From sequence record KX452698: 64,000 nucleotides of DNA. One strand, given 5' to 3'. The DNA comes from Shigella phage KNP5. Below, one piece after another: positions 22,046 through 41,050 of the stretch (position 1 is its first letter; each line of letters begins with the position of its first letter). Position numbers and translations under genes: made by a program. The notes under the pieces were generated by a model. The model made no database searches. It saw only the letters and a program-made list of their open reading frames with translations, and was not told the DNA's origin.

Positions 22046-23026
22046 TTATTTCAGAAGAGTAACCTCAGCAATTTCTTCCCAACCGTTTTTGTCGGTCATA
22101 ATAAAGTCAGCAAGATAAAGAGCAGTACGCAGTGAAACATTGCGTAAACGATTAACATTAACTTTCATCCATGATAATGCTTTATAAGTTTCTTCATCAG
22201 AAAGACCGCGCTTTTGCATCATGTCAGTTGAAAGAATAACATCTTCAACCCTGACCATAATTTCTTCATTAGTGTGAACACCCAAATCCAAATAAACCGA
22301 GCGGGACACTAATGCTTGTAAATGTGGAGCAAGTTTAGTACCACGGTCTAATTCGCGGTCAATGTCAACGTTTGTGATAAAAACAATCGTTCCTTTAAAT
22401 TCAAACTCACGCTCAATGCCTTTTTCTTCTAAGTAAGAAGACGCAGTGCTCCAGCAGACTTTACGGGTCTCTCCAGTGTCCAGAGCGGCTTTTAGAAGAT
22501 TAAGAATGTCCATATCAGAGAAAACATCTACATCATCAATCAAAAGGACAGAATTCTCTTCACGATTATTCCAAAGCTGCTCATAAAGACCAATACCAGA
22601 GATTTTACCATTAATGCTTTTATATTCAATGTATCCAATATCATTTGCTTTATTTAAAGCTTTATCTAAAGAATACGTTTTACCAATACCTGCTGCGCCA
22701 GAGATAATCAATGAACGAATATTTCCATTAATAATACCATTCGTCATCATTCCCATAACATTAAATCTTTTATTAATGCGGGTTTTCATATCTTCATATG
22801 ATTCTTTAACTTCTTCAACTTTTACACCATCATATGAAATATCTGATTTGTAAACCCAAACACCGCGACGTTTACCGTCAATTTCAACAAAAACTTTACC
22901 ATCTCCTTGTGCATCTACCGGAGCATTATCTGGGAACCATTCGCCTAAGAGCTCAAAAGTTCCAGAGATTTCTTTACCGAAGTAGATACCCTTATTGATA
23001 GTTACAGTTTTCATTTTATTCTCCAA
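22046..23026 (-). CDS. AAA+/P-loop ATPase of unknown function (326 aa)
   Basis: Walker A SGAAGIGKTY, Walker B VLLIDDVD, sensor-like FITNVD; GGAG RBS; first gene after early promoter. Confidence 0.7.
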   Translation of the reverse strand: MENKMKTVTINKGIYFGKEISGTFELLGEWFPDNAPVDAQGDGKVFVEIDGKRRGVWVYKSDISYDGVKVEEVKESYEDMKTRINKRFNVMGMMTNGIINGNIRSLIISGAAGIGKTYSLDKALNKANDIGYIEYKSINGKISGIGLYEQLWNNREENSVLLIDDVDVFSDMDILNLLKAALDTGETRKVCWSTASSYLEEKGIEREFEFKGTIVFITNVDIDRELDRGTKLAPHLQALVSRSVYLDLGVHTNEEIMVRVEDVILSTDMMQKRGLSDEETYKALSWMKVNVNRLRNVSLRTALYLADFIMTDKNGWEEIAEVTLLK

Positions 23027-23039
23027 ATCCGTATCAGTT

Positions 23040-23082
23040 GATAGTTGTATAGTACCATAAAGCTTTATGCTTGTAAACCGTT
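23040..23082 (-). promoter_or_regulatory. T4-type early promoter
   Basis: Same repeat family (gttgatagttgtatagtacc ... cttgtaaacc). Confidence 0.5.
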
Positions 23083-23106
23083 TTGTGAAAAAATTTTGAA
23101 ATAAAA

Positions 23107-23128
23107 AAGGGAGCCCGAAGGCTCCCTA
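23107..23128 (-). terminator. Intrinsic terminator 3' of nucleotidyltransferase gene
   Basis: GGGAGCC-UUCG-GGCUCCC stem-loop followed by UUUUUU on minus strand. Confidence 0.6.
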
Positions 23129-24142
23129 TCATTTATAATAACTTCGGTGGTTTTCAAGATAAACCCTCTCAAGGAAGTCATCCCAGAAACCCATGTCTAC
23201 TTTTTGCTGCATACCGTTCTTAGAAGCTTCAATGGATGCTGCTTCTACTTGATCGACCACATCTTCCAAAAACTCTTGAACAGTTTTAAATGGATGTTTA
23301 CCCAACTTCACGTCGAGAATAAATGGAGCGTCTTGAAGTGGATAGACTAAGTCACCAGTTTTGTAAATTTCCAATAGTTGGAGTCCACCACGGCAAGCAT
23401 GACTCAGAGCTTTCCAGTCAATGCCCTCATTCGCTTCAGCCTTACGAGCACGTTCGCCGTATTCAGCATCAAGTTTATTCAAAGACTGCTTAAGCTCAAT
23501 AAGAGAAAGCGTTGTTTGATATTTACGACCCAACACAGTGTAGAACGTTTGTGGACCTGTTTTCTCATGATTATGGAATACCCATTCACAGAATTCGTTC
23601 TCTGGAAGACGATGCTTAATATCTTCAACTTTAGTTCGACGCTGCTTAATGGAACCGTCTTCTTGGTAATCAACCCATTGCTCAGGGATTTGATTAACTA
23701 CTTTCAACACATCACGTAATGCGGCCAAACGAGAACCCTTAACACCGTATTTAGAAGCTTGCTTGCGAACATATCCTAAGTAGGATTTCATGTTGGTCGT
23801 ATAAAAACGAGAACGGTTGTCTTGAATAAACTTCCATACATCAGGCAAATCAGATTTAACTACTAGTTCCGGTGGAGTGTGGAGCATATCCAATGCTACA
23901 GTTTCACCATCTGCTGCTAATTTAAAGAAATACTTAAGACTGTATAGTTCATGGTCAATATCATCTTTAGTGTTTTTAGATGATGTGTTGTTAGTGTTTT
24001 TACTCATATGCTCTTTAACATTTCCAATAAGAATATCGCGAGCAGGAGGAACAAAGATTTCTTTAAAATCTACATCAGATTCTGGAGTAGAAGTTCCATA
24101 AAGATGACTACCAAAATAGCTTTTCATTACTGTTTTCATCAT
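23129..24142 (-). CDS. Pol-beta-superfamily nucleotidyltransferase-fold protein (337 aa)
   Basis: N-terminal GSHLYGTSTPESDVDF matches the hG[GS]x(9-13)DxD NTase signature; ATGA coupling to upstream membrane-protein gene. Confidence 0.6.
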   Translation of the reverse strand: MMKTVMKSYFGSHLYGTSTPESDVDFKEIFVPPARDILIGNVKEHMSKNTNNTSSKNTKDDIDHELYSLKYFFKLAADGETVALDMLHTPPELVVKSDLPDVWKFIQDNRSRFYTTNMKSYLGYVRKQASKYGVKGSRLAALRDVLKVVNQIPEQWVDYQEDGSIKQRRTKVEDIKHRLPENEFCEWVFHNHEKTGPQTFYTVLGRKYQTTLSLIELKQSLNKLDAEYGERARKAEANEGIDWKALSHACRGGLQLLEIYKTGDLVYPLQDAPFILDVKLGKHPFKTVQEFLEDVVDQVEAASIEASKNGMQQKVDMGFWDDFLERVYLENHRSYYK

Positions 24143-24600
24143 TCAGCCTTATATTCAATAACAGGACATACTTTAGCTTTACGCGCTTTTAAAAATTCGA
24201 CGATAATAGATTTCTTGGGTTGAATAGGAGGTAAACCTTTATACGCCCTATCAATATTTTCTACATGTAAAGCATAATCCTTTTTCCATTTATAATCTTT
24301 ATATTTTTCATGCAGTTGTGCAGGAATAACAAATGAACCAATAATAAGTAAAACAAGCAAAATGGCAAGTATAAATGCTGATGGAATAAGAGTCCATAAA
24401 CTACCAAAAATAAGCCATTTCTGCATGATTTCTGCACAGATAATAGTTAGACCTGCGAGTATAGTACATCCGAAAAAAGAAACGAAAAATGTAGGGATAA
24501 CAATAGACCAAAAGTATGCACACAGTGTCTTAGGTCGTTTCCATTCATCATTAAACAGTTTGAATAATTTATAGTGCCAAGAGTTTTCATTAATAATCAT
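24139..24600 (-). CDS. Integral membrane protein (153 aa)
   Basis: Several hydrophobic helices (FWSIVIPTFFVSFFGCTILAGL..., ILAILLVLLIIGSFVI). Confidence 0.55.
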   Translation of the reverse strand: MIINENSWHYKLFKLFNDEWKRPKTLCAYFWSIVIPTFFVSFFGCTILAGLTIICAEIMQKWLIFGSLWTLIPSAFILAILLVLLIIGSFVIPAQLHEKYKDYKWKKDYALHVENIDRAYKGLPPIQPKKSIIVEFLKARKAKVCPVIEYKAE

Positions 24601-24602
24601 AA

Positions 24603-25124
24603 TTATCCTTTCATTGAAGGTGTAACAGTTGTTAAATACTTAATCATAGCTTCAGCTTCTGATTTTGATAATGAAATTTCTCCATTGTTTTGACGAATAG
24701 AAATAAAATCCGGATGACGGTCACCACCAGCTTTTAAAACACACATATAAGTATCAGTTTCATCTTCAATATCTGAAATAATTGAAGCAGTTCCGCATGA
24801 ATGTGGTTTTTGATAAATCAATGCAGCTTTTCTTCCACCGTTTGACTGTTCATAAACTTTTAACACATCAAACAAATCGCTTCTTTTATCAATAGCTAAG
24901 ATGTTGTTTTCATCTTCAATGTTAAATCCTTCGGATACTTCATAAAGTGTCACCCATAAATCACCTATATCGATAGTAGCATTTCCTTTTCCACGACTTT
25001 CAAGAATGTGACAAATTTTCTTAATTTCATCATAACTCATTTTAATAATATCATCTCCTTGACTAAGGAAGATGTCATTTTTAAATTCAACACGAATTAA
25101 ACCACTTTCACTTGAAATAAACAT
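24603..25124 (-). CDS. Hypothetical protein (173 aa), paralogue pair member
   Basis: GAGGAA RBS; C-terminus ...SEAEAMIKYLTTVTPSMKG resembles next ORF. Confidence 0.5.
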   Translation of the reverse strand: MFISSESGLIRVEFKNDIFLSQGDDIIKMSYDEIKKICHILESRGKGNATIDIGDLWVTLYEVSEGFNIEDENNILAIDKRSDLFDVLKVYEQSNGGRKAALIYQKPHSCGTASIISDIEDETDTYMCVLKAGGDRHPDFISIRQNNGEISLSKSEAEAMIKYLTTVTPSMKG

Positions 25125-25130
25125 ATTTCC

Positions 25131-25664
25131 TCACTTTGAAATCATAGTTGGAATGACAGAATCAAGATAAGTCTTTAGCGCAATAGCTTCGTCTTTGGTA
25201 AATGTGACAATATGCGATCGAAAATCGTCAATTTGACGAATAGTTAAGACATCTCCATCTTCATAGCATTTTGACACATTTAAAACAGTTTCATCATTCT
25301 GATTACAAGCGTTAGTAATAATAGCATTGCAATTTTTAAACCATTTTAAACTATGTTTTCTTTCATTAGAATAATAAAAATATTTAATCTTATCTATAAA
25401 ACTGTCCCAATAAATAACTGATAGGCATATTGACTCGCTTTCAATATTAAATCCTGGGCATGAAGAATAAAAATGAATTTTATGCTCATCATTAATGCTT
25501 ACTATTTTATCAGTATAAGGATATTCAATTTGGGTTAAATGAATGATTTCACTGGGCGTAAAATATAGCATATCGTCTTCTTGCGTCAAACGATACATAT
25601 TATTTACTTTTTCTATAGCCAATTCGCCAAAAAGTGGACTAACTTCTAATACTAATCGTTTCAT
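25131..25664 (-). CDS. Hypothetical protein (177 aa), paralogue pair member
   Basis: ATG 25662-25664 after AAAGGA RBS; C-terminus ...DEAIALKTYLDSVIPTMISK. Confidence 0.5.
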   Translation of the reverse strand: MKRLVLEVSPLFGELAIEKVNNMYRLTQEDDMLYFTPSEIIHLTQIEYPYTDKIVSINDEHKIHFYSSCPGFNIESESICLSVIYWDSFIDKIKYFYYSNERKHSLKWFKNCNAIITNACNQNDETVLNVSKCYEDGDVLTIRQIDDFRSHIVTFTKDEAIALKTYLDSVIPTMISK

Positions 25665-25665
25665 A

Positions 25666-25944
25666 TTAATCCTTTTTACTGACATAAATTTGTTCTAAAA
25701 TTTTAGAGTATTCCTTTGTATCAGATTTACGTACAATCGATACACTATAAGGCATACTATCAGTGTCTTTTATAAAGCGTTCCAAATGACACTCTAACAA
25801 AATTTCTGGATTATAAATCGTGTACATCAAATTACCTGTTGCTCCACGATATTGACAGATTTCTACTGATTGAGCGTCATTCCACAATTTTGTTAAGACT
25901 AAATCACCTACTTCTAATTTCGGAAAGCTCACATTATTCACCAA
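25666..25944 (-). CDS. Hypothetical protein (about 92 aa; non-ATG start)
   Basis: ORF begins TTG/GTG; no internal ATG until codon 40. Confidence 0.4.
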   Translation of the reverse strand: MVNNVSFPKLEVGDLVLTKLWNDAQSVEICQYRGATGNLMYTIYNPEILLECHLERFIKDTDSMPYSVSIVRKSDTKEYSKILEQIYVSKKD

Positions 25945-26117: not shown

Positions 26118-26160
26118 ACAAGATTACTATATCATAACCTTGCCAACTTGTAAACCATTA
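26118..26160 (-). promoter_or_regulatory. Possible early promoter inside the 25945-26320 intergenic region
   Basis: Minus-strand GTTTAC, 17-nt spacer, TATAGT, then AAGGAG and short ORFs. Confidence 0.3.
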
Positions 26161-26982: not shown

Positions 26983-27002
26983 AGTCTCCCGAAGGAGACT
27001 AA
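26983..27002 (-). terminator. Intrinsic terminator
   Basis: GUCUCC-UUCG-GGAGAC stem-loop followed by UUUUUU on minus strand. Confidence 0.6.
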
Positions 27003-40202: not shown

Positions 40203-40219
40203 ATTTTCCTCACTTAATT

Positions 40220-40295
40220 GGTCGAGACAGTAGGGATCGAACCTACGACCTAGGACTTAGAAGGTCCTTGCTCTTCCTTCTGAGCTATGCCTCGT
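40220..40295 (-). tRNA. tRNA-Arg (anticodon UCU), CCA encoded
   Basis: Cloverleaf folded by hand; anticodon loop CUUCUAA; T-arm GUAGGUUCGAUCCCUAC. Confidence 0.8.
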
Positions 40296-40299
40296 ATTT

Positions 40300-40374
40300 G
40301 GCGGACATGCATGGATTCGAACCATGGACCAATTGATTAACAGTCAACTGCTCTACCACTGAGCTACACATCCA
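40300..40374 (-). tRNA. tRNA-Asn (anticodon GUU), CCA encoded
   Basis: Acceptor GGAUGUG/CAUGUCC, anticodon loop CUGUUAA, T-loop GGUUCGAAUCC. Confidence 0.7.
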
Positions 40375-40378
40375 AATT

Positions 40379-40465
40379 GGTGGGGAGTGATGGAGTCGAA
40401 CCACCCGAGTCGCAATGACAATGGATTTACAGTCCACACCGCTACCTCTACGGGATAACTCCCCT
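40379..40465 (-). tRNA. tRNA-Tyr (anticodon GUA), long variable arm, CCA encoded
   Basis: Acceptor GGGGAGU/ACUCCCC, anticodon loop CUGUAAA, class II extra arm. Confidence 0.7.
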
Positions 40466-40477
40466 AATTCTTAATTT

Positions 40478-40552
40478 GGTGGCCCTGGGTGGAATTGAAC
40501 CACCATCTGGCGATTATGAGTCGCTTGCTTGAACCTTCCAGCTACAGGGCCT
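40478..40552 (-). tRNA. tRNA-Ile (anticodon CAU, probably lysidine-modified; tRNA-Met not excluded)
   Basis: Perfect acceptor GGCCCUG/CAGGGCC; anticodon loop CUCAUAA; adjacent to tRNA-Thr as in the T4 Thr-Ile dimer. Confidence 0.75.
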
Positions 40553-40553
40553 T

Positions 40554-40629
40554 GGTGCTGATTGACGGAATCGAACCGCCGACCTTCTCATTACAAGTGA
40601 GTTGCTCTACCTACTGAGCTAAATCAGCA
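40554..40629 (-). tRNA. tRNA-Thr (anticodon UGU)
   Basis: Acceptor GCUGAUU/AAUCAGC; anticodon loop CUUGUAA. Confidence 0.8.
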
Positions 40630-40634
40630 AAACT

Positions 40635-40724
40635 GGCGGAGGCGATAGGATTTGAACCTATGAGTCGCCGGAGCGACTGCCGGTTTTCAAGACCGGTGCA
40701 TTAAACCACTCTGCCACGCCTCCA
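40635..40724 (-). tRNA. tRNA-Ser (anticodon UGA), long variable arm
   Basis: Acceptor GGAGGCG/CGCCUCC; anticodon loop CUUGAAA. Confidence 0.8.
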
Positions 40725-40726
40725 GT

Positions 40727-40800
40727 CTCCATACAAGGATTTGAACCTTGGACCTCCTGATCCCAAATCAGGCGCTCTACCAAACTGAGCTACACGGAGT
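40727..40800 (-). tRNA. tRNA-Pro (anticodon UGG), CCA not encoded
   Basis: C1-G72 acceptor; anticodon loop UUUGGGA; 2 nt from tRNA-Ser (dimeric precursor arrangement). Confidence 0.75.
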
Positions 40801-40809
40801 AAATTAAAT

Positions 40810-40884
<75 letters not shown>

Positions 40885-40889
40885 AATTT

Positions 40890-40976
40890 GGTGCGAGAAG
40901 TGGGACTCGAACCCACAAGGAAATCATTCCGCAGCATTTTAAGTGCTGTGCCTTTACCAATTTGACCATTCTCGCG
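40890..40976 (-). tRNA. tRNA-Leu (anticodon UAA), long variable arm
   Basis: Acceptor GCGAGAA/UUCUCGC; anticodon loop CUUAAAA. Confidence 0.8.
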
Positions 40977-40977
40977 C

Positions 40978-41050
40978 TGGGAATAAAGGACTCGAACCTT
41001 TGCATCCTGGAATCAAAATCCAGTGCCTTACCAACTTGGCTAATTCCCAA
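40978..41050 (-). tRNA. tRNA-Gln (anticodon UUG), CCA not encoded
   Basis: U1-A72 acceptor UGGGAAU/AUUCCCA; anticodon loop UUUUGAU; 1 nt from tRNA-Leu. Confidence 0.75.

Follow-up and report, generated by a model that had tools for sequence, protein, structure and literature searches.

Results

The nrdC.11 gene of Shigella phage KNP5

The window, a stretch of 64,000 nt from Shigella phage KNP5 (sequence record KX452698), contains an open reading frame (ORF) at 23129-24142 on the minus strand. This ORF is the orthologue of T4 nrdC.11 and encodes a Pol-beta-fold nucleotidyltransferase (NTase) of the RlaP family (PF10127). The features of the locus are as follows.

23129-24142, minus strand: coding sequence of the NrdC.11 orthologue, 337 amino acids from the first ATG, stop codon TGA at 23131-23129, 98% identity with T4 NP_049709.1
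24139-24142, minus strand: ATGA start/stop overlap with the ORF of a 153-amino-acid membrane protein (24139-24600, minus strand)
23098-23127, minus strand: hairpin resembling an intrinsic terminator, AGGGAGCC-UUCG-GGCUCCCU, followed by a T-run (from folding)

An earlier note on this DNA had described a 337-residue ORF that is translationally coupled through ATGA to an upstream membrane protein gene and is ended by a strong terminator of its own, and each of these features was recovered. The protein begins MMKTVMKSYFGSHLYGTSTPESDVDFKEIFV. Its first ATG overlaps the TGA of the 153-residue ORF, and an alternative in-frame ATG at 24139-24137, 3 nt past the first, would give 336 residues and is the start annotated in T4 and in most relatives. 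We take the ATGA coupling to reflect how the genes are packed locally and do not count it in favour of a two-component system. The upstream product has two long hydrophobic stretches (residues ~27-58 and 62-95) and matches PHROG 944, 'membrane protein'. The terminator-like hairpin starts 1 nt past the stop codon; it has an 8-bp GC-rich stem with a UUCG loop (23108-23127), is followed by T6 and folds with an energy of -17.7 kcal/mol (z = -4.6 versus shuffles). As predicted from the sequence, it closes the transcription unit containing the 23129-24142 ORF. Upstream, on the minus strand, there are a second terminator-like hairpin with a UUCG loop (26983-27000) and a site resembling a strong promoter (TTTACA-17-TATAGT with TG; 26126-26154), and they probably bound the transcription unit that terminates at the NrdC.11 terminator.

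Family membership and distribution

At the DNA level, this region of the window shares 97-99.8% identity with many genomes of Tequatrovirus (T4-like phages). The protein is identical to T4 NrdC.11 (NP_049709.1; COG3541/PHA02603; named 'nucleotidyltransferase' in RefSeq) at 330 of 336 residues. Pfam matched RlaP/PF10127 ('RNA repair pathway DNA polymerase beta family') with 43.8 bits, above the cut-off of 23 (E = 3.3e-11); the match spans residues 7-135, corresponding to positions 23-142 of the 249-position profile, that is, its N-terminal part only. PHROG 388, 'nucleotidyltransferase', was matched from end to end (E = 7e-137), and searches of NCBIfam and PADLOC with the protein gave no match. 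Because the score exceeds the Pfam gathering threshold, NrdC.11 is a member of PF10127 by Pfam's own criterion and, judged by sequence comparison, falls in a distinct, longer subfamily.

The earlier note had read the Pol-beta-type NTase fold from the pattern h-G-[GS]-x(9-13)-D-x-D. Of the 96 open frames in the window that reach 100 codons, just one contains this pattern, and only once; it is weak evidence when taken alone, but it is backed by profile, conservation and structure. The fold stands on the two profile matches, on a confident model and on NTases being the best structural matches. The subfamily, which had been left open, could be resolved to the NrdC.11 subfamily of RlaP.

An exhaustive HMMER search returned 3421 clusters (50% identity) at E <= 1e-3 and 830 at E <= 1e-30, and among the matches listed the relatives were mostly full-length, with 310-350 amino acids. 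By tblastn, NrdC.11 relatives were found in 1563 phage records, mainly of Straboviridae with hosts in Escherichia, Klebsiella, Shigella, Aeromonas, Acinetobacter and Vibrio; they also occur in Sinorhizobium phage phiM12 and some jumbo phages.

Both the gene and its family had been annotated and discussed before. In 2006 nrdC.11 was matched to the COG3541 nucleotidyltransferase domain (PMC1524935), and T4 NrdC.11 has since been placed in cluster 5 of PF10127, with its function listed as unknown (PMC12776372). As the outcome of a genome scan, the present finding is thus the re-identification of an annotated gene from a described family. What we add is a confident model, the assignment of D63 as the third carboxylate, the recognition of the C-terminal half as a distinct module and the placement of the subfamily in bacterial RNA-repair operons.

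Some database entries need care. Many GenBank and UniRef entries name NrdC.11 homologues 'thioredoxin', a label apparently spread from the gene name nrdC.11, and one homologue is entered as 'HNH homing endonuclease'. The orthologue of Shigella phage pSs-1 (locus L001, 7130-8139) is annotated as two coding sequences of 244 and 81 amino acids, owing either to a frameshift or to an error in sequencing. In the T4 reference (locus L086, 136-1146), N stands where the KNP5 protein has D61, and one residue is ambiguous (X).

Conserved residues and predicted structure

Conservation was measured on an alignment of the KNP5 protein with 138 relatives at 35-55% identity (139 sequences), of which 138 matched RlaP in Pfam. 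An AlphaFold2 model built from this alignment had a mean predicted local distance difference test score of 94.5 and a predicted template modelling score of 0.85. The motifs and domains are listed below.

24107-24112, minus strand: G11-S12 of the hG[GS] motif, invariant (139/139)
24068-24076, minus strand: D23-V24-D25, metal-binding DxD at the start of strand 2, with D23 and D25 in 138/139
23954-23956, minus strand: D63, putative third catalytic carboxylate, where strand 62-68 begins; 135 of 139 sequences have D and the other 4 have E
23798-24142, minus strand: N-terminal Pol-beta NTase domain and following helices, residues ~1-115 (model, Pfam)
23516-23680, minus strand: beta-rich insert, residues ~155-209 (model and alignment)
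23132-23503, minus strand: C-terminal helical domain, residues ~214-337 (model), with K244-x3-H248-x2-R251, P268 and K279 invariant or near-invariant

D23, D25 and D63 probably form a two-metal site. The neighbouring D61 is less constrained. Invariant across all 139 sequences were G11, S12, Y132, H248, R251 and P268, and conservation of at least 90% was seen for S68, D85, Q128, K131, R138, R231, D242, W243, K244 and K279. Variability of the motif residues among homologues, which the earlier note had named as grounds for giving up the NTase reading, is absent, because the GS pair, the DxD and the third carboxylate (D or E in all 139) are near-invariant in the relatives.

In the model, the NTase domain has strands at 3-10, 24-31, 45-49 and 62-68, with connecting helices to ~150. 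Gaps and sequence variation in the alignment are greatest in the beta insert, which is without equivalent in the canonical RlaPs of 260 amino acids. Sequence searches of the Protein Data Bank (PDB), with the protein and with the 139-sequence profile, returned nothing meaningful. The Foldseek neighbours were 3c18, kanamycin NTase, ANT(4'), Hailong HalB, Tam41 and LinB, every one at E >= 6e-3; the crystal structure of PfRlaP was not among the PDB matches, and this ranking of nearest folds stands without it. A search of a viral structure library matched many phage 'nucleotidyltransferases'.

The earlier note had offered signalling enzymes of the CD-NTase/cGAS/OAS type and CCA-adding enzymes as candidates, and neither class gained profile or fold support. 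Pfam, PADLOC and the fold searches gave nothing for CD-NTase, cGAS or OAS membership. For the CCA-adding/poly(A) polymerase class there was no Pfam match and just Cid1 at a Foldseek probability of 0.08. No cGAS/CD-NTase, OAS or CCA-adding enzyme was among the top fold matches. Among the functions considered in that note, the evidence favours RNA-end repair.

Comparison with the canonical RlaP profile

A canonical profile was built from 17 RlaPs of ~260 amino acids, each a full-length match to PF10127 (e.g. 1e-81). With hhalign, the NrdC.11-clade profile matched it at a probability of 94% (E = 1.2e-7) over the N-terminal 129 columns only, and D23, D25 and D63 aligned with the invariant canonical D39, D41 and D72. 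Neither the Pfam nor the hhalign match reaches beyond residue ~143. The C-terminal halves alone gave a non-significant alignment (E = 0.08, probability 0.7%), in which K244, H248, R251, P268 and K279 face canonical K149, Y153, R156, P172 and K199 in collinear order.

RNA-repair operons in bacteria and archaea

One genome per prokaryotic species was scanned, which yielded 80 loci with full-length relatives at 32-54% identity, spanning Desulfobacterales, Nitrospirota, many Alphaproteobacteria, Bacteroidota, Clostridia and some archaea. ORFs were called around each relative, neighbours were clustered, and representatives were checked against Pfam. Canonical RlaP was found at 25 of the 80 loci; at 23 of these it is the next gene downstream, in the same orientation, and its start codon often overlaps the preceding stop codon (e.g. 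loci L042, 8004-9746; L057, 8001-9802; L081, 2956-4895). RtcB was found at 9 loci, bacterial Pnkp (kinase-phosphatase-ligase) at 8, Hen1 at 6, Ro60/TROVE at 4 and T4-type PNK at 3. At least one of RtcB, Pnkp, Hen1, PNK and Ro60 is present at 18 of the 80 loci, from diverse phyla and with Pfam confirmation. Examples are given below.

L042: Ro60-RtcB-RtcA-NrdC.11like-RlaP-Hen1-AAA_5-DUF2201/VWA-Pnkp
L057: Hen1-Pnkp-NrdC.11like-RlaP
L080: Ro60-PNK-Hen1-Pnkp-NrdC.11like
L081: RtcB-NrdC.11like-RlaP
L052: Pnkp-NrdC.11like
L015 and L058: Ro60-NrdC.11like
L008: NrdC.11like-NT5C-PNK

NrdC.11-type genes of bacteria and archaea thus sit within RNA-repair operons, an observation that is new here. Since each repair gene is at most single-copy per genome, such genes probably appear at a frequency far above that expected beside a random gene, a baseline deduced from this copy number. 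The occurrence of the two types as adjacent genes in bacteria shows that NrdC.11-type and canonical RlaP are paralogous subfamilies, and the position of canonical RlaP directly downstream at 23 loci suggests that they work as a pair. An apparent fusion of the two (locus L082, 601 amino acids) proved to be an ORF-calling artefact, the NrdC.11-like frame differing from that of the long ORF, and we therefore make no Rosetta-stone claim.

Gene order in phages

Around the KNP5 gene, the following further features were noted.

22046-23026, minus strand: NrdC.10 orthologue, a P-loop AAA/STAND-like ATPase of 326 amino acids (PHROG 1250, unknown function; sub-threshold Pfam matches)
23049-23077: promoter-like site of NrdC.10's own
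24603-25124 and 25131-25685, both minus strand: two tandem paralogues of the T4 y05I/MobD.1-type 'putative transcription factor' (PF24449 and PF24448), immediately upstream of the membrane protein gene
40219-41049, minus strand: cluster of 10 tRNA genes for Arg, Asn, Tyr, Met (CAT anticodon), Thr, Ser, Pro, Gly, Leu and Gln

A homologue of the membrane protein upstream and NrdC.10 downstream are kept in phages down to ~64% NTase identity, and in some Acinetobacter phages down to ~54%; NrdC.10 stays downstream of NrdC.11 to ~54%. Other genes often intervene between these partners. Homologues of the membrane protein share 26-33% identity, compared with 65-85% for the flanking NrdC.11 and 75-78% for NrdC.10, and so diverge faster. 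The pairing of the NTase with a membrane protein gene, pointed out in the earlier note, is present locally but is not conserved: in T4 mobD occupies that place, and in distant T4-like phages other genes intervene. Neither the membrane protein nor NrdC.10 was found beside the relatives at the 80 prokaryotic loci. A link between NrdC.10 and the AAA_5 ATPase of the Nitrosospira RNA-repair operon was considered; the P-loop is all that they have in common, and no link is claimed.

A tblastn search of the window for canonical RlaP, RtcB, Pnkp, Hen1, PNK and Ro60 (E <= 1) found none of them. Phage records with a canonical RlaP number 86; they are phiKZ-like and others, and no T4-like phage is among them. 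NrdC.11 is only loosely linked to RNA-repair genes in phages. In phiM12, RNA ligase genes lie 3.3 kb upstream and 4.5 kb downstream of the NrdC.11 relative. RtcB, Pnk or Rnl1 was found within 10 kb at 7 of 80 IMG/VR loci, all with NTase identity of at most 47%. Around the gene in Vibrio phage nt-1 and in Aeromonas phage 31, neither a conserved partner nor anything else of relevance was seen. Counted by host genus, records with NrdC.11 and with Rnl1 numbered 641 and 639 for Escherichia, 286 and 287 for Klebsiella, 81 and 81 for Shigella, and 69 and 69 for Acinetobacter.

Discussion

A proposed role in tRNA repair

The textbook case of a phage countering the PrrC anticodon nuclease is the pair of T4 Pnk and Rnl1. 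Nucleases of the RloC type, which cut out the wobble nucleotide, have been proposed to render Pnk-Rnl1 repair futile. PF10127 was named RlaP by Burroughs and Aravind in 2016, as cited in PMC12776372 and PMC7824862, and the family was predicted to restore, before ligation, the nucleotides taken by RloC-type nucleases (PMC7824862). A preprint of December 2025 reported that two Pseudomonas RlaPs add one or two nucleoside monophosphates (NMPs), or the deoxy forms, to RNA 3'-OH ends (PMC12776372). These enzymes preferred Mn2+ and the 5' half of nicked tRNA, were inactive on DNA and proteins, labelled rRNA-, tRNA- and fragment-sized RNAs with any nucleoside triphosphate (NTP), and partly rescued the aminoacylation of tRNA short of one nucleotide (PMC12776372).

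By analogy with these enzymes, we consider it rather probable that NrdC.11 extends RNA 3'-OH ends by one or two NMPs without a template, which would let phage Pnk and Rnl1 reseal nucleotide-depleted tRNAs. Family membership and fold, the RNA ligase genes of phiM12, the 7 viral loci with repair genes within 10 kb and the nearly equal record counts of NrdC.11 and Rnl1 are in line with it. The clade-specific operons, such as Ro60-RtcB-RtcA-NrdC.11like-RlaP-Hen1-Pnkp and similar ones, motivate this idea of nucleotide restoration; from them and the characterised RlaPs we infer the RNA substrate, the product and number of nucleotides added, and the role in the phage in vivo. In the proposed sequence, a host anticodon nuclease would cut a tRNA, and some such nucleases, those of the RloC type, would also take a nucleotide. 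Phage Pnk would then turn the 2',3'-cyclic or 3'-phosphate into a 3'-OH and phosphorylate the 5' end. NrdC.11 would next transfer one or two NMPs from NTPs to the 3'-OH through the two-metal site of D23, D25 and D63, its likeliest substrate being the 5' half left when a host RloC-type nuclease cleaves the anticodon loop of a tRNA. The conserved basic residues K131, R138, R231, K244, H248, R251 and K279 may hold the NTP and the RNA. Finally, Rnl1 would seal the break to give a full-length loop. If NrdC.11 does restore the missing nucleotide, T4-like phages already hold a counter-counter-measure to RloC-type nucleases, and there would be a role for a gene that over 1500 phage genomes have conserved.

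Several observations weigh against tRNA repair by NrdC.11. Neither the window nor T4 has an RNA-repair gene next to nrdC.11; in T4, pseT and rnlA are ~80 kb off. The match between NrdC.11 and Rnl1 record counts is consistent with co-inheritance, and it is equally explained by the conserved gene set that T4-like phages share. The RlaPs with measured activity belong to a different sequence cluster, and activity in the NrdC.11 clade is attributed by analogy. Only the N-terminal ~135 residues match the RlaP profile; with the beta insert and the non-significant C-terminal similarity, substrate recognition could differ. The bacterial clade is commonly paired with canonical RlaP, which T4-like phages lack, and this suggests that the two types are not interchangeable. 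The nrdC.11-mobD.3 block was spontaneously lost in a viable genome-reduced T4, so the gene is non-essential in laboratory hosts (PMC9825161).

Alternative activities

The strongest alternative, which we regard as possible though unlikely, is a general enzyme for tailing RNA 3' ends or repairing trimmed ones, independent of anticodon-nuclease damage, which would patch phage or host tRNAs and stable RNAs or tag RNAs for decay. The breadth of RNAs and NTPs accepted by the Pseudomonas RlaPs, the distance of the phage gene from pseT and rnlA, and the cluster of 10 tRNA genes in the window all speak for it. However, the bacterial context of the clade is specifically one of end-healing and sealing enzymes and Ro60. 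T4 tRNA maturation, moreover, depends on the host CCA-adding enzyme.

An improbable reading is that NrdC.11 is a HalB-like or signalling NTase that makes an oligonucleotide or nucleotide messenger, possibly protein-primed and maybe together with the upstream membrane protein, either interfering with host defence or forming a phage-borne Hailong-type module of membrane protein and NTase. HalB is among the structural neighbours, but the 15% identity to it is at the level generic for the NTase fold, and PADLOC gave no match. The membrane protein gene, the other half of such a module, is absent from T4 and separated by intervening genes in many phages, and the bacterial relatives, which sit in RNA-repair operons, are without a membrane partner. 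More improbable still is a HalB-like oligonucleotide synthase, acting alone or with the membrane protein, that makes a signal or decoy, e.g. oligo-dA that holds a Hailong-type channel of the host shut.

Hardly more credible is nucleotidylyl transfer to a protein or small molecule, such as the AMPylation known from MNT antitoxins and DrrA or the reaction of aminoglycoside NTases. The structural neighbours do include kanamycin, ANT and LinB NTases, DrrA and HEPN-like helical bundles. Nevertheless, the protein is not a minimal NTase of the MNT-HEPN type: it has 337 amino acids, compared with about 100-150 for the NTP_transf_2 domain of that type, its NTP_transf_2 score of 13.9 bits is below the cut-off of 21, and the gene neighbours in KNP5 are the membrane protein and the AAA ATPase, with no HEPN partner. 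The characterised RlaPs left proteins unmodified, and the genomic context indicates RNA repair. A chance ORF or catalytically dead relic, for which the dispensability in laboratory T4 and the split orthologue of phage pSs-1 might be cited, is for practical purposes refuted by conservation, the 337-codon frame being open in a genome of 35% GC, its relatives spanning 1563 phage records and more than 3400 protein clusters, and the catalytic residues being invariant.

The regular pairing with canonical RlaP suggests a division of labour between two enzymes. Tentatively, NrdC.11-type proteins may be functionally distinct partners of canonical RlaP with a substrate-recognition module of their own; NrdC.11 would then supply the third enzyme missing from the T4 Pnk-Rnl1 pathway, by which nucleotide-excising anticodon nucleases are defeated.

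Comparison with known systems

KNP5 NrdC.11 shares with T4 NrdC.11 its position between nrdC.10 and the mobD/rI/tk block, its strand and its terminator context. The two proteins differ by six substitutions, T4 having N at position 61, and T4 has the HNH homing endonuclease MobD upstream, whereas the KNP5 window has the 153-residue membrane protein. The kanamycin and other aminoglycoside NTases and the 'NTase-like protein' 3c18 are more distant, with 7-12% identity, TM-scores of ~0.25-0.3 and no shared sequence family. Hailong HalB (PDB 9dbh), which makes protein-primed oligo-dA, likewise differs, with no profile match and a different operon logic. The Asp of the canonical GWD motif is invariant, and S68 takes its place in the NrdC.11 clade. 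Canonical RlaP is also shorter (~260 versus 337 amino acids), the extra length of NrdC.11 coming from the beta insert and a divergent C-terminal domain. Nevertheless, the RlaP family, with the Pseudomonas enzymes PfRlaP and PaRlaP (PMC12776372), shows the same GS...DxD...D catalytic pattern and the same order of an NTase domain followed by a helical domain, and the NrdC.11 clade, like RlaP, occurs in RtcB and Pnkp/Hen1 operons.
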